The notes under the pieces are model-generated. The model saw only the letters and a list, made by a program, of their open reading frames with translations. It ran no database searches and was not told the DNA's origin. A stretch of DNA of 64,000 bases from Dehalococcoidia bacterium (GTDB lineage Bacteria; Chloroflexota; Dehalococcoidia; Lucifugimonadales; UBA3495): contig OY843611.1 of NCBI GenBank assembly GCA_963692995.1, positions 2,874,440 to 2,938,439 of the forward strand, read 5' to 3'. The translations under genes were made by a program, and so were the position numbers. Numbering within the stretch: the first letter of the stretch is position 1; each line of letters opens with the position of its first letter. Positions 5,122 through 49,427 of the stretch are shown piece by piece.

Positions 5122-5137
5122 ACTCCTGGAGCCAACC

Positions 5138-15244: not shown

Positions 15245-15394
15245 AGGGCCGGTTTCCGTCGCCGGGGTCTCAGTCCCCGGCATGCGCGTTTGTCCCGGAA
15301 TATACCCTGCGCCCCCGGAACCGCGCAAGGCCGGAGCGTCATCGCCGGCGCAGTCTGTTATCTGCCGGACAGTCGTGAAAGGAGGTCCCGGTTC

Positions 15395-16033: not shown

Positions 16034-16057
16034 TGAACCAAAAGGCCGGAGGCTGCG

Positions 16058-21900: not shown

Positions 21901-22791
21901 ATCTGCCAGGACATTTTCACCGGCATTCCCGCGCACTTCACCTACGACTCCGGCGTGATCCGCCGCGGCTGGAGCGTAATGTGGATCGTCGCGCTTATCC
22001 TCATCCCCGTTATCCTTTTCTGGGAACTGCTGCGCCTTTCCGCCGGCGCCTGGTTCGGCGAAGGCGGCGTCGTCGTCCTCCGCAACCTCTTTCCCCGCAT
22101 TATCCTGGCCCTGCTGCTGGTCTGCCTCAGTTTCTACATCTGTCAGGCCCTGATCGGCTTTACTTCCGCGCTAACCTGCTACGTCAGCCAGTCCCTGGAC
22201 GTCAGCCTGGCCAGCGTGGCGACCAGCGGATTATTCGGGTTTTTCAAATCGGTTATTGCATTCGCCCAAACCGGCGGCAATCACGCGGTTCTCCTGACCA
22301 TCTTGGCCTTGCTGATGCTCGTCGCCATGCTGGCTATGTTCATCAAACTGGTCTTGCAGCTGCTGCTGCGCGTCGTCGTCATCTCGGTTTTGGTCGTCCT
22401 GGCTCCCGTCGCTATGGCCCTGTCCCTTTCCGACAGCACCCTGGGCTGGTCCCGCAAGTGGCTGGGCATCCTGCTGGCGACCCTTTTCCAGCAAGTCCTG
22501 ATTGTCGTTACCCTCTTTGTGGGCATGGGCATCATCGACCAAATGAACTGGTTCGGCGGCAACCTGGGAGTCAGGCTGGTCCCCGATTACGGCGAACTTT
22601 GGCACGTAATCACCCAGTCGGTCATGGCCTTTCTCGTCTTTTACCTGGCCGGGAAAATTCCGGCCATGGTCAATCCCACCATGGGCGCCGTCTTCGGCCA
22701 GGTCTGGGACGAAGTTCGCCGCAGCGGACAGTCCACGGCCATGATGGCCCTGGCCATGGGCCGAAGGATCGGGTCCGGCATGGTCCGCTGA
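18940..22791 (+). CDS. large envelope protein (1283 aa): ~1000-aa extracytoplasmic region plus a C-terminal polytopic VirB6/TrbL-like membrane domain
   Basis: An N-terminal TM is present (MPALLLALAAVIGATLLF). The last ~300 aa contain about 6-7 hydrophobic helices (WIVALILIPVILFW..., ILALLLVCLSFYICQALIGF..., VLLTILALLMLVAMLAMFIKLV..., VVISVLVVLAPVAMAL..., ILLATLFQQVLIVVTLFVGMG...). This is the layout of TrbL/VirB6-type channel subunits. Confidence 0.6.
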   Translation: MKRRNRQRRMPGQSAGGRITGRRITWRQRRNAGRMPALLLALAAVIGATLLFRPPPAVIEAQYDARAQGGADAQCWTSANGFAPAHASGSRVSVDRRFFSPGPESGATDYLDIRDPLTNMADYRFDAQWLRSFTTDENYDPLKLRDYQAGQAAQANDGRKELIVDPGLGLTTPALVGQLKGFPVMSGDATVDSGDGEGSTTTTLNLKTIRVDVDHELSAQYPAQSALADAGIDLDNPPANLLDWIQDTGPAPADGSPLVEKPNGLITERQLMLDSDNPLVDFASGDFDDADSRLAALGRHFWPNLADDRLAVVIKLNEAYRQDEGNGAGARKRFQGGRALRDPVDGTPRQSYLWPQPPPRSLPEAASLTGGEIRWPADFAALSWHLYAVNNLDSRTYGDYDLGPSLAGSEPADAAAMAKNIFGDAAAEWLEVMDDDDDADGRKAVRRMPDNIPAPPTDRPELRQRPLLPFQQGVNWTGGAGRLVNAGVVAPADGEPMPGTAGRNSFIQFEIRDGAGPHYPQPGVRPDQGHIPTLFDADSRFQINPNRPYLLVVAFYETEFDEAGRERFRRVLCRVAVDPAITLRGSDAHVSEGSAATPEVARTNQGEGQQGVFRRMARRLEEISQFDVSLPRMLFNYGKMKLGEEVAAVASETSAQTQQLLSQKVFQGHADNDPRWQEWEDAAQAHSSIAFGGVDGLPDSSLQLPRPELQIEQIDGEYATTLEKKRGNDWELTPKYQVWNPETQEWGLISHEDVGLSRDTWEVGCPDGICPPGYADSDKFLPKVPVTWTAPGGDHDGYRVCVVSDPRSAAVWRYQQVNGDGDPIYQPAPASAEQCFNLPRFVNNAGSYADLAASGLELGHGGNAFANVGFDPDTDADTHPHLKDFTDYAQQRLLLPVGFVHQIRVAAYFGVPEWAEAAAIRHSADGLRLGVFSPVITLSGADATCHGFVAAGSGPVHDFQRAAGCADPAALDALDPLDGFWALAGDTICQDIFTGIPAHFTYDSGVIRRGWSVMWIVALILIPVILFWELLRLSAGAWFGEGGVVVLRNLFPRIILALLLVCLSFYICQALIGFTSALTCYVSQSLDVSLASVATSGLFGFFKSVIAFAQTGGNHAVLLTILALLMLVAMLAMFIKLVLQLLLRVVVISVLVVLAPVAMALSLSDSTLGWSRKWLGILLATLFQQVLIVVTLFVGMGIIDQMNWFGGNLGVRLVPDYGELWHVITQSVMAFLVFYLAGKIPAMVNPTMGAVFGQVWDEVRRSGQSTAMMALAMGRRIGSGMVR

Positions 22792-28988: not shown

Positions 28989-29163
28989 AGGACCCGCCGG
29001 CTATCCCGAAAACCGCCCAGAGGCCCGGAGCGGCCCCGGAACCGCAGCAAAGGGGAAATCCCCAAAGAATGCCCGAAGGCCAGCGAGGGGCGTTTCCGGG
29101 CTATTCCAGGCCCGCTACGGATCAAGCCGGACGCCCAATTCGCCCCAGCGCCGCTAAAAACGC

Positions 29164-29198
29164 GAATGGGCCGGACTACGTTACTTTCCGGCCCATTC
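29164..29198. promoter_or_regulatory. perfect 12-bp-stem hairpin 38 nt upstream of the Toprim/D5-like gene
   Basis: GAATGGGCCGGA (29164-29175), 11-nt loop, TCCGGCCCATTC (29187-29198). The T-run (GCGTTTTT) is on the minus-strand side only. Confidence 0.4.
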
Positions 29199-29235
29199 CT
29201 TGCCCGCTCACCGACACCCGCGAAGGACAGAAAGC

Positions 29236-31911
29236 ATGGCAACTACATCGTATCAGAAACTCGCCCATCCCGACAATATCGCCCGCTGGCTCCGCGGCCG
29301 CAAGATCGGCGCCAACGACTGGCGCATTCCCCACCTCTGCGGCGGAGAACGCGCCCTTTCCGATAACCCCGGACTGAGCCTGTCCCTGGACAAAAATGGC
29401 CGCACGATTTTTTACTGCCACTACGGCTGCGACCCCGACGATACCAGAGCCGCCCTGGCGCCCTTCGCCGTCGGCCGAGGCAAGGTTCCTCCGCCCATCG
29501 CCCCGCGCCGCTCTTCGCGCAACAACGGCGGCAGCAGCAGCGGCAACGGCGGCAACGGCGGCAGCAGCGGCAACGGTAGCAACGGCGGCAACGGCAGCAG
29601 CAGCGGCAACGGTAGCAACGGCAGCAGCAGCAACGGCAACGGCAATGGCAGCAACGGCGGCCCCTCTTTCGCCCCCGGCAATCACCCCTGCCCCCAGTGC
29701 GGCAACCCCGCCGGGTTTCAGGCCCAGTCCGACCCCCGCTCCGGCTGGCCGATCCTTACCAGCCTCTGCTCCTGCGCCCTTTCCTACTCCCGGATGCTCG
29801 CCGCCCTGCCTCCCGCCGTCGGCGCCGCCTGGCAAGCCTGGGCCGATTACGCCACCGGCGCCGGCTCCCGCCGCATTATCCGCGCTTTTCCCGAAACCGC
29901 TAAATCCGGCAAATCCAAATCCCGCTGGTCCGGCAAAGGCCCTCTGGCCGGTCTGCAACCCCGCCGCTGGCTTCCCGATGCCCCAGCTCAGTCCATCATC
30001 CTCGCCGAAGGCGAAAAGGCCGCCGCCGCCGTCCATTCCGCCCGGCTCAACCTCCCCATCGTCGCCGCCAGCCTCCCCGGCGCCGCCGCCATGGCAACCG
30101 CCGACTACTCCCCCTTCGCCGGATGCGATATCACCGTCTGGCCCGATAACGACGCCACCGGCCAGGCCGCCGCCCAACGCGCCATCGCCGCCCTCTACCG
30201 CGCCGGCGCCGCCACCGTCCGCATGGTCTCCCCCGACGAATGCGCCCGCTTCCTGCCTGCCGACGCCGCTACCGTCGGCTGCGACGCCGCCGACCTGGAC
30301 GCCGCCCTGGTCCGCCTCCTGATCCAGCGCGCCGCTACCGCCGATCCCCCAGTGGAAAAGGACGATCCCTATATGCAGCCGCTACCCTCCGATCTCCTCA
30401 ACTCCGCCAGCCTGCAAGGCGAAAAACCCACCTGCGACGGCACCATGCTCCGCATGCTCTGCGCCGACCAGGGCAGCGGTCTCCTCTTCGCCGCCGCCGC
30501 CGCCGGCTCCCCCGACCAACTCCTGGTCAGCGACGACACCGGCGTCTGGCGGGCCGATACCGGCGAACTCCGCTACCGCGTCCGCGCCGCCGCCTACCAC
30601 TGGGCCGCCGCGGCGCAAGAAGCCGCCGACGCCGGACGAGTCAAGCCCGCCTACGCCCGACAAGTCAAAAACTGGGCGCAGTCCTGCGAAAACGCCGCCG
30701 CCCAAGACCGCGCCCTCGCCTCCGCCGGCGCCGTCTATCACAGCCTGGCCGCCGCCGGCGCCCTCCCCGCGCAACTCCTGGTCAGCTCCGGGGACGCCCT
30801 GGATCAGGACGACGCCAGCCTGGGCGCCCGCAACGGCGTGATCAATTTGCAAACCGGAGAACTCCTCACCGGCGACGCCGCCCGGGCCCGCCGCGTTACC
30901 CGCCGCATTCCCGACGATTACCACCCCGACGCCGTTCATCCCACCCTGGATCGCCTGCTGGAACTGCTGCCCGCCCAGGAAGCCGACGGCCTGTTGGATA
31001 CCTTCGCCTTCGCTCTCGGCGGACAGCCGGCCGGACAAATCGTTCTGCTGGCCGGCCCGCCTAACTCCGCCCGCAGCCTGCTGTCCGCCGCCGTAACCGC
31101 CGTCCTCGGCGACTTCCGCAGCCGCGGCTACGCCATGTCCCTGCACCCCGACGCCCTGCTCCGGCCCCGCGCCAGCGGCGGAGTCTATAGCCACAGCCAT
31201 CAAGCCTGGCTGGTCGGCGTGCAAGACGCCCGCGTCGCTACCCTGCCCAACTTCGACCCGGAGCCGGACGCCGCTCTGGACACCGGCCTGCTCAGCCGAC
31301 TGGACGGCAGCAAAGTCCTCGCCCTGCGCGACGTGGGCGACCGCGCCGGCGTCTCCCGCCCCGCCGCCGCTACTCTCTTCATCCCGGTCAGCGAGCAAAC
31401 CCTCGACGAAACTTTTCTCGATACCTACGGCCGCGAACTGGCCGGACGCCTGCGCGTCTTTCACTTCCCGCCGCAACCCCCCGGACGGGCCGAGGGCAGC
31501 GCCGCCGACTTGCTCCGGGAACCGGCCGGCCGGCAAGCCCTGCTGGCCCGGCTGGTCCGGCGGGCCGCCGCCCTGACCGACCGCCAGGACCCGCCGCAGC
31601 CGCCGACGTACCGCGAGCCGGAAGACGCCGCGCCGTCGCCGCGGGAACGCGCCGCCCGGTGGATCCGCGACTGCGTGGAAGTCACCGGCGACCCGGCCCA
31701 CCGGATCAGCGCCGCCGAACTGATGCGGGCCGCCGCCCAGGCCCTGGGCGGCGACGGACGGGAACGCGCCGGCGGGCTGACCCGCAAAGCGCTGCTGTTT
31801 CTCCTCAAAAGCCACGACCCCAACTTCCCGGAATCGGCGCCGCTGCGGATGGGATCGCAAGTGGCGCGGGGCTACGCCGGCGTGCGCCTCAAGCCGAAGG
31901 CGGGATCGTGA
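29236..31911 (+). CDS. primase-helicase-like protein (891 aa): N-terminal Zn-binding region, Gly/Ser/Asn low-complexity insert, Toprim domain, and a D5/P4-alpha-like NTPase region with a degenerate Walker A
   Basis: ATG at 29236 (MATTSYQKL). Cys/His clusters are HLCGGE...FYCHYGCD and CPQCGNP...CSC. Toprim motifs are IILAEGEKAAAAV ... ITVWPDNDATGQAAA. The P-loop position reads LLAGPPNSARSLL, where GxxxxGK[ST] is expected. Confidence 0.65.
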   Translation: MATTSYQKLAHPDNIARWLRGRKIGANDWRIPHLCGGERALSDNPGLSLSLDKNGRTIFYCHYGCDPDDTRAALAPFAVGRGKVPPPIAPRRSSRNNGGSSSGNGGNGGSSGNGSNGGNGSSSGNGSNGSSSNGNGNGSNGGPSFAPGNHPCPQCGNPAGFQAQSDPRSGWPILTSLCSCALSYSRMLAALPPAVGAAWQAWADYATGAGSRRIIRAFPETAKSGKSKSRWSGKGPLAGLQPRRWLPDAPAQSIILAEGEKAAAAVHSARLNLPIVAASLPGAAAMATADYSPFAGCDITVWPDNDATGQAAAQRAIAALYRAGAATVRMVSPDECARFLPADAATVGCDAADLDAALVRLLIQRAATADPPVEKDDPYMQPLPSDLLNSASLQGEKPTCDGTMLRMLCADQGSGLLFAAAAAGSPDQLLVSDDTGVWRADTGELRYRVRAAAYHWAAAAQEAADAGRVKPAYARQVKNWAQSCENAAAQDRALASAGAVYHSLAAAGALPAQLLVSSGDALDQDDASLGARNGVINLQTGELLTGDAARARRVTRRIPDDYHPDAVHPTLDRLLELLPAQEADGLLDTFAFALGGQPAGQIVLLAGPPNSARSLLSAAVTAVLGDFRSRGYAMSLHPDALLRPRASGGVYSHSHQAWLVGVQDARVATLPNFDPEPDAALDTGLLSRLDGSKVLALRDVGDRAGVSRPAAATLFIPVSEQTLDETFLDTYGRELAGRLRVFHFPPQPPGRAEGSAADLLREPAGRQALLARLVRRAAALTDRQDPPQPPTYREPEDAAPSPRERAARWIRDCVEVTGDPAHRISAAELMRAAAQALGGDGRERAGGLTRKALLFLLKSHDPNFPESAPLRMGSQVARGYAGVRLKPKAGS

Positions 31912-31922
31912 GGACGGGGGAC

Positions 31923-32172
31923 GCCGCAATGGGGCCAGGAAGGGCCGGAAAGGGGCCGGAGACGCCGGGAACGCCGCAAAAGGGCGCAAAGGTAGGGAAG
32001 GGCGGCAAAGGGGCCTCAGAGACGCCGGAACGCCGCAAAGCGGGGTCGCCAGACCGCAGCGGGGCCAGAAGGCCAGGGAACGCCGCAAGGGAAGGATCGC
32101 GCCGCCGCCGCAAAGGGAGGTCAGGGATGTCGCCGGAACTGCCGCCGCAAGGGGACGCTGGGGATGCCGCAA
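31923..32172 (+). repeat. left array of GCCGCAA(A/G)GG motifs (7 exact plus 2 variant copies, + strand orientation)
   Basis: GCCGCAA occurs at 31923, 31973, 32032, 32082, 32107, 32144 and 32166. Variants gcgcaaagg (31984) and gcggcaaagg (32002) are also present. Spacing is irregular. Confidence 0.85.
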
Positions 32173-32258
32173 AGGGACTTCGGGAAGGCCGCCAGGGGAA
32201 CGGATCGGGCCGGGCAAACCAGCCACGCCGCCGCCCTCAAATCGGCCTCCGCAGCGGC

Positions 32259-32304
32259 CTTCAAACCGGCCCAAAACCGGCCCTCAAACCGGCCCAAAAT
32301 CGGG
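32259..32304 (+). repeat. four tandem CAAA(A)CCGGCC-like units abutting the inverted-repeat core
   Basis: cttcaaaccggcc caaaaccggcc ctcaaaccggcc caaaatcggg. Confidence 0.75.
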
Positions 32305-32306
32305 TT

Positions 32307-32416
32307 TGTAACACTTGTAACAGGAAATCCTTAATTAACTATAGAGCTGAGAATTTAAAATCGAAAATTCAGTTTAACCTAAAGCACTATAGGGATCTCC
32401 TGTTACAAGTGTTACA
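32307..32416. other. candidate origin / DNA-unwinding core: a perfect 19-bp inverted repeat flanking a 72-bp, 29% G+C spacer
   Basis: TGTAACACTTGTAACAGGA (32307-32325) and its exact reverse complement TCCTGTTACAAGTGTTACA (32398-32416). The spacer has 21 G/C of 72 by my count. It contains GAATTT-n8-AAATTC and two ACTATAG copies. Confidence 0.6.
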
Positions 32417-32475
32417 TTTGCCAAAATATTAGAACAAATCACCCTAATTTGTTCGGGAAATTAGTACATTTGTCC

Positions 32476-32892
32476 TGTAACAAAAGTGTTCGGAACACGC
32501 CCCTCCAGCTGTTACAAAGTGTTACAAATCGGCCTCTCCTGTTACATTTTGGCCGCTTTTTTAGAATTCGTATGGGAAAACGGGCGCAAAAAACGCTTTT
32601 TTCAGCCGCAACGCCGCCTTCTCGACGAAAAAAACCGCATTTTTTGCGCCTGCGGAGCCGCTGATCCGCGTTTTTAACCCCGTCAGAGGCGCTTTTTACT
32701 GAGTTTTGCCCGTTTTTTGCGCCTTGGCCAGGCTGTTACGCGCCGTTTTTGCCGCTTTTTGCGCCCTGGACATGGCAAAATTTCGGCCCTAAACCCCCAT
32801 TTCGGCCCCTGAGGGCGGGAATTTGGCCCCAAAACCGGGATTTTGTAACACTTTGTAACAGCTGGAACCCCCCGTCCCGCCCTCCTGTTACA
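32476..32892. repeat. TGTAACA/TGTTACA heptamer (iteron-like) field, including a second perfect 19-bp inverted pair
   Basis: GCTGTTACAAAGTGTTACA (32508-32526) and its exact reverse complement TGTAACACTTTGTAACAGC (32844-32862). Single heptamers lie at 32476, 32540 and 32886, with a variant TGTTACG at 32734. TCCTGTTACA recurs at 32398, 32537 and 32883. Counting the core pair, there are at least 11 heptamers in 600 bp. Confidence 0.85.
32583..32765. repeat. TTTTTGCGCC boxes and closely spaced T-tracts (possible bent DNA)
   Basis: GGCGCAAAAAA (32583-32593) is inverted relative to TTTTTTGCGCC (32640-32650). Further copies lie at 32713-32723 and 32756-32765. T4-6 runs recur, several only ~9-10 bp apart. 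Confidence 0.7.
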
Positions 32893-33083
32893 CCCCGCAA
32901 CGGCCCGGCGCCGCCCCTTCCGGAGGGCCTGCGAAGGCCAGCCCGCAGCCGCTTTCCGGCCCGCTTTTTGCCCTCTCCTGAGGGCGCCGCTGCCCTTGAT
33001 CCGCGGTGGCCGCTGGACCGGCTGGGCGGCCCTTTGCAGCAGCATTCCGGGGGGTCTCGGCGGCGTCCCCGCCGACCTCGGCC

Positions 33084-33495
33084 TTGCGGCTACCGGCCCC
33101 GTCTGCACCGGCCTTGCGGCAGCGTCTCCGCCTACTCCGGCTTTGCGGCTATCGGCCCGGCCCACCTCGGCTTGCGGCACCAGCCTTGCTCAGCCCGGCC
33201 TGTGGCAGTGGCCTCGCCGGCATCGGCCTTGCGGCAGCGTCTCCGCCTACTCCGGCTTTGCGGCTATCGGCCCTGCCTACCTGGGCTTGCGGCTACCGGC
33301 CCCGTCTGCACCGGCCTTGCGGCTACCGGCCCCGCCGGCCTCGGCTTGCGGCTACCGGCCTCGCTTACCCCCGCTTGCGGCAGCGGCCCCGCCCACCTCG
33401 GCTTGCGGCGGCGTCTTCGCCTACCTCGGCTTGCGGCAGCGTCTCCGCCTACTCCGGCTTTGCGGCTACTGGCCTCGCTTACCCCGGCTTGCGGC
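33084..33495 (-). repeat. right array: 14 copies of TTGCGGC (the reverse complement of the left-array GCCGCAA core) at ~29-bp spacing, organised as higher-order tandem repeats
   Basis: TTGCGGC occurs at 33084, 33114, 33143, 33172, 33229, 33258, 33287, 33317, 33346, 33375, 33403, 33431, 33470 and 33489. Inter-core segments also repeat (agcgtctccgcctactccgg x3; taccggccccgtctgcaccgg x2). All three + frames are open, which fits repeats rather than coding. Confidence 0.9.
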
Positions 33496-33936
33496 AGCGG
33501 CCCCGCCGGCCTCGCCGGCCCCGGCCTCGTTCAGCCGAAATCCCGCGTCTTGCGGGATCAGTAATGACGTGTTCCGTCACAATAAAGTCAGGGAGTGCTG
33601 ACTTTCACCTCATACGAGGCGCTGTCGGAGATAAATCCGCTACAATTGCCCCTGCTTGACGATGCTCTTCGTCGCCAATAAGCCGCGGCCCAACGCCTTC
33701 CGGCTAACTATTCCCGCTCAGCCAACGCTTTCCGCCAGGAAGATGCCGGAACTCAACCCCTTCCCCAATCCGGCCCGGCCCGTCTTTCCCCTTTCACTCG
33801 GCGCCGGGCCAATGCGGTTGCGCTTTCCCGCCGTCAACCGCCCCAATTGCGACCTTTTCCGCTACTCCGGTCCGCAACCCCTAAACTATTCCCCTCATTG
33901 CCGTCCGCAATCCCTGCGCCTCAGTGCAGCCCAGCA

Positions 33937-34695
33937 TCAAATTCCAGCGCTCAACTCAGCAAACGCCGCCAAGTTCGACAATCGGACATCAGCATCCTGC
34001 GCCGTCCGCGACAGCCGGCCAGTCCACGCCGCTCCCGCCAGCCTACTAGCCCACGCCGCTTCCGTTTCCCTGAACTCGGCGCAATAAATCAGCGCCGCCC
34101 GCGACAGTTCCGCATCGGCAGCCACCGCTTCTTGCGCCGCCTCAATGAGGTCCGGCAGTCGTTGCGCCGCCGCGTCTCCCTCGGCCGCCGAAGCCGGGTC
34201 AGGGCGCAGCAAGGTCGCCAAGGCCGCCAGGGCTGCGCCGGCCGCGCCAGCCTTTTCCGACAACGCGCCGGGAACCGCCAGCTCAACGTCATAGGCGCCG
34301 GCCACTAGCGCGTAAGCGTCGCCCAGTCGAAAGCCGCCCTCCAGCGCCGTGTCCGTAGCCAGGGCGAAGTTAATTTCCTCCGTCGCCGCCGCCGCCCGCC
34401 GGTTCGCCAATGACAGCGCGTTTGCCGCGTCCGCTCCGGCGATGCCGGCAATCCCCAGGATCGCCGCGGTGTAGGCGCGCGACATGGCGACGGCGTACAA
34501 GGCGTATTGGGACAAGTTCTCTTCCCCGGCGTGGTCAAAAGCGCCATCTTGCAGCTCCGTCAGGTAATCGGCGAAAACGCACTCGCCAGCCAGGGCGCGG
34601 GCCGCGTAACCAGCCAGATAATGACCGCTTTCATCCATCGCTTCCGCCTGGGCCAGCGCCGCTTCCCAGCGGTCAGTAGGCATTGTCATAACCAT
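33937..34695 (-). CDS. Ala-rich hypothetical protein (252 aa)
   Basis: ORF with a GGGGGA-type SD and GC3 bias. No family recognised. Confidence 0.55.
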   Translation of the reverse strand: MVMTMPTDRWEAALAQAEAMDESGHYLAGYAARALAGECVFADYLTELQDGAFDHAGEENLSQYALYAVAMSRAYTAAILGIAGIAGADAANALSLANRRAAAATEEINFALATDTALEGGFRLGDAYALVAGAYDVELAVPGALSEKAGAAGAALAALATLLRPDPASAAEGDAAAQRLPDLIEAAQEAVAADAELSRAALIYCAEFRETEAAWASRLAGAAWTGRLSRTAQDADVRLSNLAAFAELSAGI

Positions 34696-35172: not shown

Positions 35173-35468
35173 TCAGCAACCCGACGTTGCCTGAGCTGCC
35201 GCTCCAATCCGCTGAACTCTCATCCCAACTAGCTGCCGGCGCTGCGTGAATGTTCCGTCAGCGTTCATCCAGTCGTACAACTCCACGTCCACGGCGGCCA
35301 GCGAGTTCACCAGGGTCCGGATGCTGTCGTAATACTGCTGCTCCCGCAATGCGGCGATGCGGTCGTTCTCGTTTATGGGGCTATTGCTGTAATGGCTGCT
35401 CGGCTAATTTTGGCGACGGCGCCACGCGGCAGTCTCAGCCGGCATTCCCTTGGGCAAAGAGCGTACAT
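35173..35468 (-). pseudogene. small ORF pair or frameshifted gene, paralogous to 39243-39458
   Basis: A 31-codon ORF (35373-35468, MYALCPRECRLRLPRGAVAKISRAAITAIAP) is followed, in another frame, by a 76-codon open frame (35173-35403, ...NENDRIAALREQQYYDSIRTLVNSLAAVDVELYDWM...). That frame has no ATG near its 5' end. The paralog at 39243-39458 carries the LCPKECRLRLPRCAVAQIS and LRERQQQ parts in one frame. Confidence 0.35.
35408..35459. repeat. 52-bp dispersed repeat, copy 1
   Basis: ttttggcgacggcgccacgcggcagtctcagccggcattcccttgggcaaag. It has 3 mismatches to copy 2 at 39359-39410 by my alignment. Confidence 0.85.
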
Positions 35469-35534
35469 CGCGTACTGGAAAAGGTCTTCCCTGCCATTAT
35501 TGTTGCCGGCCGGGTCGTTTCATGCCAGTGATCG

Positions 35535-35753
35535 TTATTCATCCGCATTCTCCGGGCTGCCGCCCGCGCAGTAGGCGTCGGCCTGCGCTTGATGGATTCG
35601 CCTGGCGTCTTGCTGACTATCGGCCGGCACTACCCCGTTGCAGCGCTGGCACCGCCATATGCCCATGTACCGCAACCGATTGCCGGATGCGTGAAACTGC
35701 CGGATTACCGGCTTGCCCAGGTCGTCAACGATTGGCGTCATGGTGAACGGCAT
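35535..35753 (-). CDS. small zinc-ribbon protein (72 aa), distant member of the PYHC family
   Basis: ATG at 35753 (MPFTMTPIVDD) follows GAGAGGA. Motif YMGIWRCQRCNGVVPADSQQDARRIHQ. Confidence 0.55.
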   Translation of the reverse strand: MPFTMTPIVDDLGKPVIRQFHASGNRLRYMGIWRCQRCNGVVPADSQQDARRIHQAQADAYCAGGSPENADE

Positions 35754-36115
35754 GCTTGGTCCTCTCTTGCGGCGAAGGTCGCATAATGCGGGGCGCGCTG
35801 CCGGATAGCAGAGACGGCGGCGCGGCAAAGTCGCTCGGGCGCGTTTCCAGCCGGCGAACGGGTCAGCCGCACGCGCGGCAGAATGCGGCGCTCTCAGCGC
35901 CCCGCCGACATTGGGGCTGTACGGGGGATAGCGACGCCGGACGGCGGCGATAGCCGGGACCCTGGAGATACGAGCCGCCGCGCCGGCGCTCAATGAAGGG
36001 GAGCCGACGCCTTTTCTTGCCGGGCGCGGTCGGCGGTCATAGCAGTACACCTTCTCCCCGTAGCGATTTGGGGTTGCTTCGCCGACGGCCCCCGGCGCCG
36101 GGGCTAGTCGGCGGG

Positions 36116-36601
36116 TTAGCCGTCGGCCAGCGCTTCGGCCTCGGCTTTGGCTTTGGCGGCCAGGACTAAATCGCGGCCGGCTTCGCCGGCTTGCCGGTTG
36201 GCCTCAATCAAGTCATCGATGGATTGGTCCGTGTCTTCGATAAGTTCGATACCCTCGTGGCGGGGAAGTCCCACGCAGACGGTCTTCTCATAGGCGTCAA
36301 GGGCGGCCCAGGCCGCCGTTGCCAGGGCGTGGGCGAAAGGGTCGTTGCCTTCACCCTTGTCGCGGACGTAAGAGCAGGCGGCGGCCGCCGTTTCTACCGA
36401 CATCACGGCCACGCTGAGGGCGGTTGCGGCATGGGCGAGGGCCGCGGAAGCGTCTTTGGCGTCACGGGCGTTCAAGGCGGCTTTGGCGGTCTCAGTCCAG
36501 GGCTTACGAACCTCCCGGAACTCCCGGAGCGCGGCTTCGCCGGTGGGCTTGTTCCAGGGCTTTGCTTCCTCCCGGACGGCGGTTTCGGTAGTTTTCTTCA
36601 T
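36116..36601 (-). CDS. hypothetical protein (161 aa)
   Basis: TAAGGAGA upstream of the ATG (MKKTTETAVREE...). Ala-rich and helical-looking. Confidence 0.65.
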   Translation of the reverse strand: MKKTTETAVREEAKPWNKPTGEAALREFREVRKPWTETAKAALNARDAKDASAALAHAATALSVAVMSVETAAAACSYVRDKGEGNDPFAHALATAAWAALDAYEKTVCVGLPRHEGIELIEDTDQSIDDLIEANRQAGEAGRDLVLAAKAKAEAEALADG

Positions 36602-36643
36602 GTTCTTTCGTCTCCTTATGCGTAGCGGCTTGATTGCGTCGCT

Positions 36644-36895
36644 TCAGTATCCGACTGCACAGTCCGGGAAGCGATCCGCCAGCGTGTCGATGGCGATGGT
36701 CGGCCCCGGTATGCTGCTGCCGTCCTGGAATACCCAGTAGAGGTCAATTCCGTAGATGACGTTTTCCAGGGCCACCATGCAAAACACCTGCCGGATGATC
36801 TCCGGCGCCTGCTCTGCGTATTCCCGTTGCAGTTCTTCGCCGTGGGCGTTGATAACCCGGTCGATGCCGTTCATCGCGGATAGGTCTCCCATCAT
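36644..36895 (-). CDS. small hypothetical protein (83 aa)
   Basis: AAAGGAGGAA lies immediately upstream of ATGATG at 36895 (MMGDLSAMNGIDRV...). The longer track ORF (to 37213) is upstream run-on. Confidence 0.6.
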   Translation of the reverse strand: MMGDLSAMNGIDRVINAHGEELQREYAEQAPEIIRQVFCMVALENVIYGIDLYWVFQDGSSIPGPTIAIDTLADRFPDCAVGY

Positions 36896-37002
36896 TTCCT
36901 CCTTTTGAGGCAGCGGCGCTCCGGCCGGCCGGCCCGGAGCGTGTTTGTTGCTGACGCCGGACGGCGATACGCCTGACCCACGTGGTTCTGACGCCAAATC
37001 CG

Positions 37003-37284
37003 CTACCGCGCCTTCCTGCTTGGCAACCCGTAGCAGATGACCTGTTTCGTCTGTTTCTCTTCTGCGCAGGCCGCGCAGGAGGCTTGGTACAGCCCGTAGT
37101 CGCTGCGTCTTCCCCGGTGGCCGGCGGCATACGTCAGTACTACGCCCTTGTGATCTGCCAGGCTGTGCCGGCAATAGCGGCAGTGGTACGGCTCGATGTA
37201 GATCGGGTGCCATTGCACCGCGGTTCCCTTGCCGCTGATAAAATTAATGTCGATGCGACTCGGTCTGGTCGTTTTGCTGCCCAT
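37003..37284 (-). CDS. PYHC zinc-ribbon family protein (93 aa)
   Basis: Motifs IYIEPYHCRYCRHS ... CAACAEE. GAGAGAAAGG upstream of the ATG. Confidence 0.55.
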   Translation of the reverse strand: MGSKTTRPSRIDINFISGKGTAVQWHPIYIEPYHCRYCRHSLADHKGVVLTYAAGHRGRRSDYGLYQASCAACAEEKQTKQVICYGLPSRKAR

Positions 37285-37446
37285 ACCTTTCTCTCGTGTC
37301 CGCCATTACTGCTCACCTGGCGCTGCGTCCGGCGCCGGACGCAGCGCCAGGCCAACCCAGCGCCGGATCCAATCCTCAGCCGCCGGCGCGAAGGCCTCAA
37401 CGCCGCTCCGGCCGCCTGGGCCGCCGTCGCTACCGCCAATTTCGTT

Positions 37447-37656
37447 TCATTGGACCTTGCTGTGCAGTTCCATCGCAATCGGGATAGCCTCCTCAAGCAT
37501 CGCCAGCGTGTCCCTGCTGACGATAGGATAGTGCATACTCGCATACTGCAACTCCTGACCGATGTGCGCCGCCGTGAGTTCGGGGGTTTCCCTGACCATC
37601 TGCTCAATGGCTGCTATGTAAGTCGCAACCCTGACGGCTGCCTCTTTTATCTCCAT
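37447..37656 (-). CDS. small hypothetical protein (69 aa)
   Basis: ATG at 37656 (MEIKEAAVRVATY...) overlaps the upstream stop (TAATG). Confidence 0.5.
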   Translation of the reverse strand: MEIKEAAVRVATYIAAIEQMVRETPELTAAHIGQELQYASMHYPIVSRDTLAMLEEAIPIAMELHSKVQ

Positions 37657-37820
37657 TACCTCACCAGCCCTCGCGCTACCACCGGCGGGAACTCCGGGTC
37701 GGTGACTGCCCGGTGGCAGAACTCCGTGGTAGATACCACGATGGTCAGCGGCATTAGCCGCCAGTCCGGTGCGGCCCCGCACTCGCCGCACGTGATAGTG
37801 AAAGCGCCAAGTGGTGTCAT
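37656..37820 (-). CDS. small zinc-ribbon-like protein (54 aa), not in the ORF track
   Basis: My translation reads MTPLGAFTITCGECGAAPDWRLMPLTIVVSTTEFCHRAVTDPEFPPVVARGLVR. GGAGG lies 7 nt upstream. Its ATG overlaps the upstream stop (ATGA) and its stop overlaps the next ATG. Confidence 0.5.
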   Translation of the reverse strand: MTPLGAFTITCGECGAAPDWRLMPLTIVVSTTEFCHRAVTDPEFPPVVARGLVR

Positions 37821-38023
37821 TCCGAGCCTCCGCAGCGGCCGCCGGCTAGGTCGTCGTGCATGGCTCTCGCCTCATCTGCCGAAGTCGCCTTGACGCCTAC
37901 CCCGCAAATGGCGCAGTGGTAGGGTTCGATTATTAGCAGCAGTCGTTGAAATAAGTCCGGGCATTTTCGTATCGCCACCAGGCGAGGTGAGCCATTTTCT
38001 CGGCGATGCGCTCGGCTCCCCAC
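37817..38023 (-). CDS. PYHC zinc-ribbon family protein (start uncertain)
   Basis: IIEPYHCAICGVGVKATSADEARAMHDDLAGG closely parallels the C-terminus of 40250-40588 at both protein and DNA level. The 5' part overlaps the preceding gene by ~90 nt, so the true start may be internal or non-canonical. Confidence 0.5.
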   Translation of the reverse strand: MGSRAHRRENGSPRLVAIRKCPDLFQRLLLIIEPYHCAICGVGVKATSADEARAMHDDLAGGRCGGSE

Positions 38024-38268
38024 AGGGCGGATAGGGTCAAGTTTTGCAGCGGGGTACGGGCCGGATGCCGCTGGCGGCGGAGCATCGGGCTGTGGCCGGG
38101 ATGCGCCTTGGCGTAGGCAATCGCCGCGGCCTTGAGATGACGGTGGAAGGCGTCAGCGGCGTCCGCCTCGCGGGACAGCATCGTCAGGTCAGCTTCTGCC
38201 ATGGGCGTGGCGAAGCCGACGCAGGTGGCGGCGGTCAGCAGCGCAGGGGGCAGTGGCTCAGGGGTCAT
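37933..38268 (-). CDS. hypothetical protein (111 aa)
   Basis: GAGGAGA upstream of the ATG (MTPEPLPPALL...). Confidence 0.55.
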   Translation of the reverse strand: MTPEPLPPALLTAATCVGFATPMAEADLTMLSREADAADAFHRHLKAAAIAYAKAHPGHSPMLRRQRHPARTPLQNLTLSALWGAERIAEKMAHLAWWRYENARTYFNDCC

Positions 38269-38460
38269 GGTCAGTCTCCTCTCGCTGCGCGCGGCGGTCT
38301 GACACCGCTAGATCAGGTCAACGGAGCCGCCGGGCAGCGCCGGTTCATCGGGTCTATCCCGGTGCGCAGGGAAACTACCGGGGGCGGCCGGCTATCGCGG
38401 CAGCGTGGCGGGGTCTATCCCGATGCGATAGGCACGTCCCTGTGCGCCTGCAAAAGCCCC

Positions 38461-38679
38461 TTATTGTGGCTTTTTACCTCCGTCATTTTCCGTGCTCCCT
38501 TCAGTAGTCAGTCGGTTCTCCAATCTCACTGTGTCCCAATCGGCCATGCTCAACTGGCAAATTTTGGTACACACCGGCCTGCGCCGGGGATGCTCGGCCA
38601 CCGGCGGTCCGATGTCATACCAGCCGTTAACCGGCCTTTCGTCGTTGCACATAAAGCAGCGTCTTTCGTCGGCAATCAT
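38461..38679 (-). CDS. small Cys-rich protein (72 aa)
   Basis: ATG at 38679 (MIADERRCFMCNDERPVNGWYD...VCTKIC) with AGGGGA 7 nt upstream. Confidence 0.5.
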   Translation of the reverse strand: MIADERRCFMCNDERPVNGWYDIGPPVAEHPRRRPVCTKICQLSMADWDTVRLENRLTTEGSTENDGGKKPQ

Positions 38680-38689
38680 GGTCATTCCC

Positions 38690-38932
38690 CTACCGTTCAC
38701 CTGTCGCCATCGTCGGATACGAAATCGGGTCGGCTACCTCGCGGCGGCAGTACTCGGCGGTATGCCACTGCGGGCCCAGCCCGAACTGGTGCCACAGGAC
38801 GTCGTGGCAATTCGCGCAGATGTCAATAACGTTGCAGTACTCGGCGTCTATCCGCTGGCTCTCGGCGTGGACGGTAATGCCGCCTTCCTCGGCCAGTAAC
38901 TCGCCGCAACTTCCGCAGTCTTGTCTTTCCAT
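38690..38932 (-). CDS. small zinc-ribbon protein (80 aa)
   Basis: AGGAGA upstream of the ATG. Motif MERQDCGSCGELL...CANCHDVLWH. Confidence 0.6.
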   Translation of the reverse strand: MERQDCGSCGELLAEEGGITVHAESQRIDAEYCNVIDICANCHDVLWHQFGLGPQWHTAEYCRREVADPISYPTMATGER

Positions 38933-38993
38933 ATCAATCTCCTATTCGGTTTTTAAGTGGTCGGATATTCCATTAGACTATTTCTCCGAGCCA

Positions 38994-39209
38994 TCATGGT
39001 CGCCGGCCGGGTCGTCCAGGGCCGCTATAGTCGGCGAAAGTCCGCTCCCCGGCCAAGGCCAGCAACGGCTGGCCCGTCCAGCAATGACCGCCGTGATACA
39101 GCAGCGGCGGGGCAAATCCTTTCACGTAACGCCGGCATTGGGCAGCCTTCTGCGGTGCAGATAACGCCGGGCCGGGACAGCTCCGTAACGACGGGAGGCA
39201 ACCTGGCAA
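38994..39209 (-). CDS. small hypothetical ORF (71 aa, TTG start), weak
   Basis: Track ORF. It contains YHGGHCW, reminiscent of CPAHCWNHG in the next ORF. There is no good SD. Confidence 0.3.
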   Translation of the reverse strand: MPGCLPSLRSCPGPALSAPQKAAQCRRYVKGFAPPLLYHGGHCWTGQPLLALAGERTFADYSGPGRPGRRP

Positions 39210-39242
39210 CGGCTCCGGCCGGGTCGCCGATGCGGGGTTTAG

Positions 39243-39698
39243 CTATTCGGGCCGGGCCGGCGTCCCTTCCAGCGCGGCCAGCAGGACCGCCTGCTCTGCT
39301 TCCGGCAGCGCTGGGGCCAGCCGGTCAAACTGCTGCTGCCGCTCCCGCAATACGCTGATTTGGGCGACGGCGCAACGCGGCAGTCTCAGCCGGCATTCCT
39401 TTGGGCAAAGGGGTACTGCCGGCGGTTCTCCGGGAAGGACGGCAATCGGCCGCCCGCTTTATTCTCCCGTAGCGCCCCGGACCATCGCCAGCTCAGCCGA
39501 AAGCCTTGCGCCAGCCGGATCGGAAATGAAGGATTGCGTCGCCGGCTGTTTGGCGGCGTGCGAATGGGGCGGCATTCCCGCGGCATTCCGGGGGGACTTA
39601 TCGGCGGACGGGCAAAGTCTGCTCGTCTGCCTTAGCCTGCCGACATTTCCGTGATTCCAGCAGTGCGCGGGACACTCGCCCTGCGTCGGAATCGTCAT
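39243..39698 (-). pseudogene. Cys/His-rich small ORF interrupted by an in-frame TAA (or two abutting ORFs); the 3' part is a paralog of 35173-35468
   Basis: The ATG at 39698 gives MTIPTQGECPAHCWNHGNVGRL... up to a TAA at 39459-39461. The same frame stays open for 71 more codons (SGRPIAVLPGEPPAVPLCPKECRLRLPRCAVAQISVLRERQQQFDRLAPALPEAEQAVLLAALEGTPARPE) to a TAG at 39243. Confidence 0.4.
39359..39410. repeat. 52-bp dispersed repeat, copy 2
   Basis: tttgggcgacggcgcaacgcggcagtctcagccggcattcctttgggcaaag. See copy 1 at 35408-35459. Confidence 0.85.
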
Positions 39699-39723
39699 AC
39701 TCGATGTCGTGTGAGCGTTTCGG

Positions 39724-40047
39724 TTAGAAGTCTCCTTCGTACCGGGCGGCGGAAGCCTCTGCCTGGTTCAGGGCGATGCCCAAAATGTCGGCTCGGCCGG
39801 CCTTTTGGGCCATGATGTTCTTGAGAGTACGCCATGCGGCTGATACCCCCAGTCCGGCGGCTTGGCCCACGTCTCCCTTGGCTTCTCGGGCGCAGGCCAC
39901 TGCCAGGGCGTCTATGTCGATGCTGGCATTAGCGCGTTCGTCTCTGTCGTATCCTGCTTCCTAGAACGTCATGCGGAGGGACCACTTGGCGGCTTCGAAG
40001 GCGCAGGTGGCGTGTTCGCTGTCTGTGAGGCTTTCATTGAGTACCAT
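39724..40047 (-). pseudogene. small ORF interrupted by an in-frame TAG (28 codons + TAG + 78 codons)
   Basis: The ATG at 40047 follows GAGGAAA. It reads MVLNESLTDSEHATCAFEAAKWSLRMTF, then TAG (39961-39963). The same frame continues EAGYDRDERANASIDIDALAVACAREAKGDVGQAAGLGVSAAWRTLKNIMAQKAGRADILGIALNQAEASAARYEGDF to a TAA at 39724. Confidence 0.4.
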
Positions 40048-40249
40048 GTGTTTTCCTCGCTGGTCGTCAGGCCCGCCGGTGGTGTGGTTCTTTTCTCTGA
40101 TGAGGTCCGTGTCGTGGGAGGGGAGTCATGTGTCGGTTTCTTGAACTGCCACCGGGGATTCGGCGGGTTGCCTGTTGTGCCGTGGCTTGGCTGGTTTCGA
40201 CGCCGGATCGCTGGCCCGGCGTGGGCTAACTGGCCGACTGCCGAGGTCG

Positions 40250-40588
40250 TTATACTGCGCCCCGGTGGCGAATGCCAGTCAGGTAGTCGTGCAGGGCATT
40301 CGCTTCTGCCGCTGAGGTCGCCTTGACCACTAACCCGCAACGGGTGCAGTGGTAGGGTATGATTCGCATCTCAATGGGCTTTCCATCGGTGGCAAATCCC
40401 GTCCGCACGTCCGTACAGCGGTGGTGAGACTCTATTGGTGTGCCGTCCGGCATCACTACTCCGAAGTCTGCACCGCAACTGCGGCAGTGGAAAAGCGTGA
40501 TTGGGGCGCCGTCTAAGCCAATGCCCCGCCAGGGGGAACCGTCGGCGGAACTGGTCAGATCGGGTTCGCCGACGGGGACAGTTGGCAA
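40250..40588 (-). CDS. double zinc-ribbon protein (112 aa), PYHC family
   Basis: TTG start with TGAGG upstream. Motifs are TLFHCRSCGADFGVV...HHRC and IIPYHCTRCGLVVKATSAAEANALHDYLTG. Confidence 0.6.
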   Translation of the reverse strand: MPTVPVGEPDLTSSADGSPWRGIGLDGAPITLFHCRSCGADFGVVMPDGTPIESHHRCTDVRTGFATDGKPIEMRIIPYHCTRCGLVVKATSAAEANALHDYLTGIRHRGAV

Positions 40589-40608
40589 CCAGTTGCCTCA
40601 ACTAGGCG

Positions 40609-41730
40609 TCATGCGTCCTCAGGGTCCTCATTAGTTATGACTGCTGCAATTTGCGGATTCAGCAAACGCCACCTTTGTCCCACTCGTTCGAGATCCCCTA
40701 TTGCAACTACTGGCTCTTTCCTCGTGTGAGCTTCAATCGCCTTGTGGTAATCAGATTGGCTCAACACCGCGACGACAGACCGAAGGTTCCCTGCGACGGA
40801 TGTTCGCAAGGTCACGGTTCCCTCAGTGTCGTCGTCATCACGTTTTAGCGTTTGTACGGAACACAGCAACTCAACATCCGGCTGCGGCTCCCGGTTGCGG
40901 AAAATCCGGGACGCCTCGCTCAGCATCGGCACGTCGTCCTGGGTAAACTGCACTGGACGTTGCGACAGTGTCACCGGCCGTGTTCTAGCCCAAGTGAACC
41001 GGATGTCGAGCGCGGAGAAGGGTTCAATCATCTGAACCAGCGCGTCACACAGGTTGGCGCTAATACCATCACTGATGGCGTTAGCGAATGCGTCTTTATC
41101 GCCGCTTACCGCCTTTTCGGACGCCTGCTTGGTCGCATGCAAAGCGTCGTACAGCCGTGTAGTTATTCGCCTTGCAACTGGGGGGTCAGCGTCGCCGGCG
41201 TCCTCAAGCAGAGGGCGTTGCAACGGCGGCACGATTACGGGAGGCAACAAAGTAACTATAAAACTGCCCGGCTCGGTTTGGCCCAGACGAACTTGCGACA
41301 GGAAATCCACGGCTTCCCGGTTGGCCCCGGCCCGGTAAAGCAGCTGGGGACTGTTCAGTGAACAGGCCGCTGCCAAAAGCATATCCCGCGCGCCGGAGAT
41401 CAAGCTGGCGCCTTCGTTTATATCAACCGTGCTATCGTCTTCAGCCACCCTCACCCGAATGACGTCCCGGTCCGTGGTCATTAAGTCTTTGCAGAGCGCA
41501 ATCTCGCTGATACCGGCAACGCGAGCCAGAATCTCGACTAACTGCGCGGTCACGCGTCCGTAGTCGCCGATGTCTCTAGTTCGGGGAACCAGTAATTCCG
41601 GCAACCCGACACCGGTGTACACATCGGAATGAGAACCAAAGATGTCAGTTTTGGTCCAGCCTTGACCACGTATGTAGGCCGCCAAGGCCGCGGGCGACAC
41701 TGCTGATCGGTCGTTTCGGTCTGGGATCAT
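40609..41730 (-). CDS. hypothetical protein (373 aa), downstream partner of the DUF4365 gene
   Basis: Its start overlaps the upstream stop (ATGA at 41727-41730). G+C is lower than the surroundings. No family recognised. Confidence 0.7.
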   Translation of the reverse strand: MIPDRNDRSAVSPAALAAYIRGQGWTKTDIFGSHSDVYTGVGLPELLVPRTRDIGDYGRVTAQLVEILARVAGISEIALCKDLMTTDRDVIRVRVAEDDSTVDINEGASLISGARDMLLAAACSLNSPQLLYRAGANREAVDFLSQVRLGQTEPGSFIVTLLPPVIVPPLQRPLLEDAGDADPPVARRITTRLYDALHATKQASEKAVSGDKDAFANAISDGISANLCDALVQMIEPFSALDIRFTWARTRPVTLSQRPVQFTQDDVPMLSEASRIFRNREPQPDVELLCSVQTLKRDDDDTEGTVTLRTSVAGNLRSVVAVLSQSDYHKAIEAHTRKEPVVAIGDLERVGQRWRLLNPQIAAVITNEDPEDA

Positions 41731-42242
41731 GGTAGTTGCGAGATCCTCCCAGTGCGGGACTGTTCCATGAGCGCCTTCAGTCCGTCAACATCAAACCGGT
41801 TTTGTTTCGGAATCCGGACGGTCACGCTAGTCTCGTTGTCGGTCTCATCCCGTCCCAACAGATTCAGCCAGTAGGCACGGCGCCTTATTATTAACTCGTC
41901 ATCGGCAATGGTCGCCCATCGTAGCGGGTCTTTTGGCAAGTCAAGCACCACCAGCAAACGCGGGGTCTGGGTTTCGATGCGCAGAAGGTCGTAGTTCCGA
42001 CGCAGTAGCGGGAAGGCTACACGGTCATCGCCGACATCGTGCAGGTTGACCGTCGCCTTCAACTGAAGTTCAAGGGCCGGCCGCATATCGCCCCCGGCCT
42101 GTATACGCAAGTCTATGCCGTCCCGGTCCCTCTCGTACACAGCGGTGACGTAACCGGCCCGCGCCGCTACCACTTGGGCATAGGCCATGGAAAGCAACTC
42201 CTCCTGGTCAGGACCAGTTAGCAGGCGGTCCTCCGACAACAT
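41727..42242 (-). CDS. DUF4365 domain protein (PD-(D/E)xK-like, 171 aa)
   Basis: EELLSMAYAQVVAARAGYVTAVYERDRDGIDLRIQAGG...ALELQLKATVN fits the DUF4365 pattern I recall (e..a.ayv.a.a...G......D.GiDl.i......l.vQlKat). GGAGAGG upstream of the ATG. Confidence 0.65.
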   Translation of the reverse strand: MLSEDRLLTGPDQEELLSMAYAQVVAARAGYVTAVYERDRDGIDLRIQAGGDMRPALELQLKATVNLHDVGDDRVAFPLLRRNYDLLRIETQTPRLLVVLDLPKDPLRWATIADDELIIRRRAYWLNLLGRDETDNETSVTVRIPKQNRFDVDGLKALMEQSRTGRISQLP

Positions 42243-42465
42243 GGCGCCTCTCCGAAGCGAGATCGTGGCATGTACTCGCCGTCCGCAACTCGTAGCCGGC
42301 GGCTATAGCGCTAGGCAGGCTCGCCACACGCCGCCGGTTAGGATCAGATTTTTGCCGACTGGTTGAGTTGCCGCGTATGACCGCCTCGCCACACCAGGCT
42401 AGGCGCGGCGATTGTAGCAAGCGATTGTGCAGGTTGATAGTACAGGGGATTCGCGTCAGCAACCC

Positions 42466-49296: not shown

Positions 49297-49427
49297 GGCT
49301 TGATCTCCTTGGATAAGGGGCTGGCTGGTTGGGAAGGTGGCCCGGAAACGGGCCATCGTAAAATTCCGGGTTATCTGTTTGCTGCGAGATAACGCGGGCG
49401 GCGGGACGCCGGCCCGACGGGAAGGCG

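Follow-up and report, generated by a model that had tools for sequence, protein, structure and literature searches.

The closest described counterparts of the locus treated here are the replication origins of the Staphylococcus aureus pathogenicity islands (SaPIs) and phage-inducible chromosomal islands (PICIs). These origins lie 3′ of rep or of a fused pri-rep gene and consist of 6-12 short iterons with an AT-rich centre, and the occurrence of two or more iterons on each side, facing in opposite directions, is stated to be a conserved feature (PMC9371898; PMC6092414). The C-terminal winged helix of Rep binds the iterons, both binding and melting are ATP-independent, and two hexamers probably load themselves, one per side (PMC9371898; PMC6092414). 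The SaPI replicon work cited in these two papers includes Ubeda et al. (2007, PNAS; 2012, Plasmid). Here we report on a stretch of 64,000 nucleotides (hereafter the window) from contig OY843611.1 of a Dehalococcoidia bacterium, which carries a perfect inverted repeat around an AT-rich core (32307-32416) downstream of a gene for a predicted primase-helicase. The inverted repeat is probably the core of a bidirectional replication origin, belonging to an adjacent self-loading primase-helicase replicon of the PriRep or P4 alpha kind.

The repeat had been singled out in an initial annotation made from the letters alone, and its anatomy is as described there. The left arm, TGTAACACTTGTAACAGGA at 32307-32325 on the plus strand, is the exact reverse complement of the right arm at 32398-32416 on the minus strand, giving 19 bp of perfect complementarity, which extends to 27 nt at 93%. 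Each arm contains two TGTAACA heptamers with starts 9 bp apart, the left arm having GGA in addition, and the left arm can be aligned with the arms of two other loci, L002 and L015, discussed below. The 72-bp spacer (32326-32397), the putative unwinding segment, has 21 G/C (29%) within a window of 65% G+C overall, and contains TTAATTAA, two ACTATAG copies (CTATAG twice; 32338 and 32386) and GAATTT-n8-AAATTC starting at 32351. As in the SaPI and PICI origins, there are thus two iterons per side, here as exact inverted copies around a 72-bp core of 29% G+C, placed in non-coding DNA 3′ of the initiator gene.

The inverted repeat is a real feature, far beyond chance. In 30 first-order Markov simulations of the window, with loops of up to 120 bp, the longest perfect inverted repeat reached 11-15 bp, compared to the 19 bp found here. 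TGTAACA occurs 12 times in the window (1.1 expected; none of 100 shuffles reached 12), and 11 of these sites fall within 32307-32892. A composition scan of the 64 kb showed the lowest-GC 72-mer (26%) to start at 32305, overlapping the core, and the 110-bp unit folded as single-stranded DNA gives -26.2 kcal/mol (z = -7.5 versus shuffles). No match to the region was obtained by blastn against plasmid and phage collections, and the exact 19-mer has about five single matches in unrelated low-GC genomes in genome_contigs (596 Gb), which is about chance level. Neither Rfam families nor tRNAs were found in the window, and a structured-RNA reading was dropped for that reason; an intrinsic terminator was likewise rejected, as no T-run follows the arm. 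The second most AT-rich 72-mer of the window (13040-13120, 29% G+C) is intergenic and holds the sole TGTAACA/TGTTACA site outside the region of the putative origin (13057); it is free of repeats and resembles a common promoter region.

The inverted repeat lies in the first non-coding stretch 3′ of the stop codon (31911) of the primase-helicase gene, with other repeats in between. This gene, the putative initiator gene (29200-31911, plus strand; the start is uncertain, TTG at 29200 or ATG at 29236), encodes 903 aa with a Zn-ribbon, a Toprim domain, a D5_N/superfamily 3 (SF3) helicase and a C-terminal tail. Pfam matches are D5_N (5.6e-9) and Toprim_3 (1.2e-4), the PHROG match is to DNA primase (1e-18), and profile matches in the PDB are to poxvirus D5/E5 and to C962R of African swine fever virus (ASFV), at about 1e-8. 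The same PDB profile search detected no sequence similarity to PriRep5. A low-confidence AlphaFold2 (AF2) model (predicted local distance difference test, pLDDT, 53) matched SaPI5 PriRep5 (7OLA) in Foldseek with E 6e-9 and a TM-score by target of 0.50-0.62; the root-mean-square deviation of 7OLA was the lowest among the matches listed, which also included D5/E5 and ASFV PrimPol. The AF2 models are based on shallow alignments (5 and 3 sequences; pLDDT ~52-53), and the helicase core alone is usable. The C-terminal tail (…TRKALLFLLKSHDPNFPESAPLRMGSQVARGYAGVRL…) can be aligned with P0002 and P0003, two distant homologues of 30% identity. A homologue search with the helicase and C-terminal half alone returned none, alanine-rich words having probably swamped the candidate list.

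Distant Toprim/D5 primase-helicase loci from IMG/VR and metagenomes were surveyed for their best inverted repeat with a loop of 15-130 bp. In 28 of 65 loci a repeat scoring at least 12 was present in the 470 bp that follow the stop codon; such repeats were lacking upstream of the gene (0 of 66 loci), 1 kb further downstream (0 of 52) and inside genes (0 of 63). The surveyed arms usually consist of two direct 7-9-bp repeats, enclose loops of 38-101 bp and mostly lie 12-100 bp past the stop codon; the inverted repeat of the window scores 21 on this scale, above all surveyed loci. The unwinding-element function that the initial annotation had listed among its options is supported by this recurrence of the two-plus-two geometry downstream of homologues, and by the position of the repeat in the first non-coding stretch after a Toprim/D5_N/SF3 gene.

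A counterpart is found in locus L002, which encodes P0003, the sole homologue with a detectably similar C-terminal domain (phmmer 1.9e-11). Its repeat, AAAAGGTAACACTCGGTACC…(~55 bp)…CCCGTTACCAAGCGTTACCTTTT, is a GGTAAC repeat that starts 6 bp past the stop codon, and three of the only four occurrences of GTAAC or GTTAC in the 11.5-kb contig are located there. The right arm of the window with its flank, CCTGTTACAAGTGTTACATTTGCC, is recognisably homologous to this repeat. In L001, which encodes P0002, a perfect 31-bp inverted repeat starting TGTAACG encloses a 28-bp AT-rich core ~300 bp upstream of the gene. Across the family loci the iteron sequence is observed to track the C-terminal domain: domains 70-99% identical to each other go with GTAACG-type iterons, those at 56% with CTAACGC and those at 44-48% with CTCACG, and a second cluster has the iterons CTGCAA, TGCCAAC or CGCCAAC. 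Exact TGT[AT]ACA clusters were not found in the 93 loci L022-L114, and GTAAC-type iterons surfaced in the same loci once the inverted-repeat scan tolerated one mismatch.

Further evidence comes from three close relatives, L008, L009 and L010, which contain the same primase-helicase (92-96% identity) and the same neighbouring genes. Synteny by blastn, junction alignment and protein alignment show that a segment corresponding to ~31752-34250 is absent from all three. This 2.5-kb block comprises the last ~50 aa of the initiator, every repeat of the region and the tail of a minus-strand open reading frame (ORF); the junction shows a short GCCGC(C)GCCCAG microhomology, and the initiator tails of the relatives are unrelated out-of-frame sequence. 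As P0002 and P0003 (30% identical) can be aligned with the tail of the window and not with the tails of the relatives, the window represents the intact form and the relatives the deleted one, and an insertion of the 2.5-kb segment into the window was rejected. Loss of the arms in related elements which keep the flanking genes had been put forward in the initial annotation as an argument against a function. Such a loss is literally what L008-L010 display, with the difference that the deletion has also removed the conserved initiator tail; since the site and the tail were lost together, their absence is not evidence against function. It reads as a joint loss of the site and of the domain proposed to use it, and the three copies are better read as being replicated passively, as part of the chromosome. 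Such natural deletion variants, lacking both origin and initiator tail, suggest that the replicon is dispensable after integration. Besides the deletion, no alignment to the 96%-identical L008-L010 is obtained for 231 bp of the window (29049-29279), in the part of the primase-helicase gene that encodes the N-terminus; this stretch corresponds to a low-complexity run of Gly/Asn/Ser (GGSSSGNGGNGG...), apparently expanded in the window copy alone.

On the SaPI precedent, the TGTAACA heptamers would act as iterons of the adjacent initiator, two on each side of the 72-bp core, about one helical turn apart and oppositely facing. With a spacing of 9-10 bp, the two heptamers of a pair would fall on the same side of the helix, a placement suited to adjacent ring subunits. 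The C-terminal domain of the initiator would bind these iterons, one hexamer assembling per side, and the AT-rich core would then be melted by the initiator, without ATP if the SaPI precedent holds. The helicases would depart in opposite directions, with primers made by the fused Toprim primase. We infer that TGTAACA is bound by the window protein, that the core (32326-32397) is melted and that replication starts here. The origin reading gives a function to a striking non-coding structure, and points to the 903-aa protein as the likely initiator of an integrated element of conjugative type which, in this high-GC bacterium, otherwise nearly defies annotation. The survey further suggests that PICIs are not alone in having two iterons, an AT-rich core and two inverted iterons, in this order, just 3′ of the gene for the initiator: on viral and metagenomic contigs this layout seems commonly to mark Toprim/D5 primase-helicase genes, and it provides a simple rule for predicting origins and their cognate iterons in such elements.

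The likeness to SaPIs and PICIs extends to the initiator, a predicted SF3 helicase fused to a primase whose AF2 model matches 7OLA, and to the proposed melting of the centre by two self-loading hexamers. However, the window element is not a phage satellite; it contains type IV secretion genes, and the int, rpr and packaging genes that typify PICIs were not encountered in the window. A phage-inducible chromosomal island would have int, a master repressor and genes for packaging or interference. Its iterons are heptamers while those of SaPIs and PICIs are penta- or hexamers, and its core is situated 396 bp past the stop codon rather than immediately after it, embedded in ~1.6 kb of further repeats, in which 9 + 14 inverted GCCGCAARG-type units have no described counterpart. 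The replicon of the window would accordingly be PICI-like in its working, but is neither a PICI nor a demonstrable member of the P4 family.

The replicon of the phage-plasmid P4 has multiple short iterons in both orientations, arranged in two separated clusters near the gene, and its type I iterons are TGTTCACC, present in ori and in crr. P4 alpha is ordered as primase, SF3 helicase and winged helix (PMC2777425, where 1KA8 is cited for the C-terminal winged helix), and its ori and crr sites are treated by Ziegelin and Lanka (1995) and by Tocchetti (1998), both cited in PMC6092414. The putative initiator of the window would likewise join a DnaG/Toprim-type primase, an SF3 helicase and a C-terminal origin-binding domain in one polypeptide, and the window has two TGTAACA inverted repeats ~200-500 bp apart. 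The second of these is a perfect 25-bp inverted repeat with a left arm at 32504-32528 (minus strand; a TGTAACA double heptamer with 10-bp spacing) and a right arm, TTTGTAACACTTTGTAACAGCTGGA, at 32842-32866 (plus strand), 313 bp from its partner. Unlike in P4, the iterons are TGTAACA and not TGTTCACC, the P4-family model TIGR01613 is matched far under its cut-off, and a C-terminal winged helix is unconfirmed in the window protein. Further parallels exist among eukaryotic viruses and plasmids. At the origins of papillomavirus E1 and simian virus 40 large T antigen, inverted pairs of short sites flank an AT-rich segment, which is melted by a double hexamer with an SF3 motor. The window shares with these the inverted site pairs around an AT-rich core and a helicase part that matches poxvirus D5/E5 and ASFV C962R; it differs in the placement of the putative origin-binding domain, which lies at the opposite side of the helicase, in a primase of the bacterial Toprim type and in the sites, which are unrelated in sequence. 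The oriV of RSF1010 has iterons and an AT-rich unwinding element, and in addition priming signals that are inverted and located on opposite strands, to which the outer arrays of the window might be analogous. Iteron plasmids of the RepA/pi/TrfA type combine iterons with an AT-rich unwinding element (PMC4980987). In contrast to the window protein, the initiators of these plasmids and of RSF1010 are no helicases themselves and depend on DnaA/DnaB of the host or on a separate helicase of the plasmid, and their iterons are 17-22 bp long, direct and confined to one side of the AT-rich element.

Several observations weigh against the origin reading as proposed. The repeat does not follow the stop codon immediately but starts 396 bp past it, and it is off-centre in a larger quasi-symmetric region with a centre near 32600-32690; the true initiation point, or a second one, could for this reason be the second inverted repeat or the GGCGCAAAAA pair near that centre (32583-32650). 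The cumulative GC-skew minimum is found near 38-44 kb and not at 32.3 kb, a signal that is probably dominated by gene orientation and was judged uninformative for an integrated element. As to the putative initiator, Toprim_3 scores 22.9 bits, under the 27.2 cut-off, and TIGR01613 reaches E = 0.006 and 15 bits compared to a cut-off of 108.7, which would make the protein at best a distant relative of the P4-family primases (TIGR01613 / COG3378). Its C-terminal domain has an AF2 pLDDT of ~50-52 in both runs, so that a winged-helix fold is not demonstrable, and phmmer of this domain versus the PDB gave no meaningful match, only designed helical repeats, which are compositional noise. Recognition of the iterons by a C-terminal winged helix, as in SaPIs and PICIs, would be supported indirectly by the way in which iteron and C-terminal domain vary together across loci and by the joint deletion in L008-L010. 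Finally, TGTAACA doublets also adjoin a VapE protein (L015) and AAA_25-helix-turn-helix (HTH) proteins (L018-L020), and the heptamer could hence be recognised by a different protein or by a host factor.

The last point derives from an 18-mer scan of viral contigs, in which identical TGTAACACTTGTAACAGG doublets were found to adjoin unrelated replication proteins. Either many unrelated domains have converged on the near-palindromic TGTAACA heptamer, or another factor is involved. In L015 (480-700), inverted TGTAACAC-TT-GTAACAGG doublets around a ~71-bp core show the same geometry directly after a VapE-type helicase gene, and an in-frame comparison of the C-terminal domain of the window with that of L015 gave no similarity. 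The same inverted TGTAACAC-TT-GTAACAGG doublets enclose a very AT-rich core of ~90 bp in L017 (560-960), which has 15 heptamers in total, and the TGTAAC iteron is thus common to replicons with unrelated initiators. A different arrangement, in which three TGTAACA heptamers and three TGTTACA heptamers form a compact palindrome with 9-10-bp spacing and no AT-rich core, is present in L014 (1337-1389), L018 (1949-2002), L019 (5463-5516) and L020 (5348-5401). These are small, low-GC, Bacteroidota-like integrative elements with an AAA_25-HTH helicase and a Zn-ribbon/DUF6371 pair; in L018-L020 the palindrome is located at the end of the AAA_25 helicase gene (C-terminal HTH), just before a Zn-ribbon/DUF6371/DUF6965 gene, and it may be the origin or an operator of these elements.

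The inverted repeat is only one module of a repeat-rich non-coding gap of ~2 kb (about 31912-33560) which begins at the stop codon. To its left, nine purine-rich units with GCCGCAARG or variants of it (seven exact GCCGCAA) form an irregularly spaced array on the plus strand (31915-32200), all aimed at the centre, and three to four CCCTCAAACCGGCC-type repeats with a 23-bp period (32215-32303) abut the left arm. To its right follow an AT-rich extension of ~33% G+C (32417-32475) with a small inverted repeat, GAACAAAT (32432-32439) / ATTTGTTC (32447-32454), and further TGTAACA iterons in 32476-32546 (32476 on the plus strand; 32510, 32520 and 32540 on the minus strand) together with the palindrome GTGTTCGGAACAC (32486-32498). 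The second TGTAACA inverted repeat, with its interior of 313 bp, has a relative orientation opposite to that of the first, and an extra TGTAACA site (32886-32892, minus strand) is located near its right arm. Its interior holds the A/T-tract repeats GGCGCAAAAAACG (32583-32766; plus strand at 32583, minus strand at 32638, 32711 and 32753), which include the inverted repeat 32583-32602 / 32631-32650. Tandem Repeats Finder delimits a right array at 33058-33507 on the minus strand, with a 29-bp unit repeated 15.6 times at a strict period and 14 CTTGCGGC cores, which read GCCGCAAG on the minus strand. This array has the inverse orientation of the left one; coding is ruled out by the period of 29 bp, which is not a multiple of 3. 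Strand composition is mirrored across the centre, with A>T and G>C on the left and T>A and C>G on the right. The two arrays share the core GCCGCAARG and are both aimed at the centre of the non-coding region, and no known counterpart of them was found. An origin design of this kind is already known from phage satellites, and the window would present a clear but fairly ordinary case of it; the elaborate repeat landscape is the sole real puzzle.

This landscape invites a wider model, which we regard as doubtful: the SaPI-like core would be the inner part of a ~1.6-kb composite origin, in which the inverted GCCGCAARG arrays serve as directional tracks recognised by the N-terminal Zn-ribbon/Toprim part of the initiator, as priming or loading signals or, alternatively, as copy-control sites. 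As the arrays point inwards (9 units on the left, 14 on the right), CYTTGCGGC would be found on the lagging-strand template of both outgoing forks. A hint in the same direction is given by L115 and L116, whose proteins have no more than the N-terminal 370 aa in common with that of the window and which yet use GCCGGCAAGG and GGCGGCAAAA as inverted iterons. In both loci inverted sets surround a core just past the stop codon, CCTTGCCGGC/GCCGGCAAGG in L115 (7356-7540) and GGGCGGCAAAA/TTTTGCCGCCC in L116 (6147-6290). These iterons, of the GCCGGCAAGG or GGCGGCAAAA type, resemble the outer-array motif and the central A-tract repeats of the window rather than TGTAACA, the likeness being between the window repeats GGCGCAAAAAACG and the L116 iterons GGGCGGCAAAA in the case of the A/T tracts.

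Among explanations other than an origin, transcriptional control fares best, and still seems unlikely. The near-palindromic TGTNACA heptamers would serve as promoter elements or as operators to which a dimeric helix-turn-helix regulator binds, and the AT-rich core would contain one or two promoters. A consensus scan indeed finds a sigma-70-like promoter on the minus strand, with the outer right heptamer as the -35 element (GTAACA, 18 nt, TATAGT), a weaker mirror-image match can be read on the plus strand (GTAACA, 17 nt, TATAGA), and the element encodes a 917-aa sigma-like protein of its own. However, only a single promoter-like match was found (0.3 expected), there is no gene start within ~600 bp on either side, and regulation leaves unexplained both the two-plus-two geometry, which follows primase-helicase stop codons in 28 of 65 loci and never precedes the gene, and the joint loss with the initiator tail. 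Origin function and promoter activity are, in any case, mutually compatible.

Less probable again is a role in partition, as a centromere-like site, or in copy control (handcuffing), where the repeats would bind a segregation or incompatibility protein. Plasmid centromeres and iteron arrays of the incA/incC type resemble such multi-repeat regions, and the long arrays with 9 + 14 GCCGCAARG-type units and 11 TGTAACA sites fit this picture; but scans of ORFs with Pfam and NCBIfam detected no ParA, ParB or ParR-like protein, and paired iterons around an AT-rich core accompany primase-helicase genes in many loci that have no arrays. A role in partition or copy control could more plausibly be assigned to the outer arrays than to the inverted repeat.

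The window looks like an integrated conjugative-type element, situated on a 3.29-Mb replicon, with genes for a coupling protein (1984-5121), a TrbL/VirB6-like ORF (18940-22791) and a VirB4-like ORF (54670-56994). Inverted repeats beside AT-rich DNA are common at origins of transfer (oriT) and at res sites, and the inverted repeat might accordingly be an oriT with its nic site, the core of a site for specific recombination or the double-strand origin of a rolling-circle replicon, all of which we consider very unlikely. The sole relaxase-like ORF (5048-6682, a weak Replic_Relax match) is ~26 kb away, no integrase, resolvase or HUH nuclease was found among the neighbouring ORFs scanned, and homologous repeats accompany the primase-helicase gene in loci without visible transfer genes (L002 and viral contigs). 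The nick, resolution and recombination options of the initial annotation thus find no support. Hardly credible is a miniature inverted-repeat transposable element or foldback insertion, which the compact 110-bp unit with perfect 19-bp termini (TG...CA), its alien AT-rich interior and TT on both flanks would suggest, as seven further copies of the terminal heptamer, a second perfect inverted repeat among them, follow within the next 500 bp, the unit is single-copy within the 64 kb, with chance-level 19-mer matches in genome_contigs, a set that lacks the source genome, and a homologous repeat occupies the equivalent place in a locus with a ~30%-identical protein.

Most ORFs of the window are orphans, and no integrase, terminase or capsid-related genes were found among those scanned. 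The sigma-like protein is encoded at 14135-16888 on the minus strand; the C-terminal ~200 of its 917 residues match sigma-70 regions 2 and 4 (PHROG RNA polymerase sigma factor, 5e-23), and a long N-terminal part without assigned function is fused to them. A second primase-like gene with a DnaG-type CHC2 zinc finger (468-1739, minus strand) adjoins the coupling-protein gene and may encode a conjugation-associated primase. The relatives differ from the window in a region of variable cargo with conserved flanks, which spans ~6.9 kb in the window (35432-42333) and ~1.9 kb in the relatives (L008 13166-15088, L009 8985-10868, L010 13175-15097). This region contains the longest perfect palindrome of the window, the G+C-rich 36-bp sequence CCTGGCGCTGCGTCCGGCGCCGGACGCAGCGCCAGG (37316-37351), as well as a DUF4365 gene (41727-42242) which is located elsewhere in L008. 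The genes for leucine-rich repeat proteins (47806-49356) also vary among the copies, both in number and in sequence.

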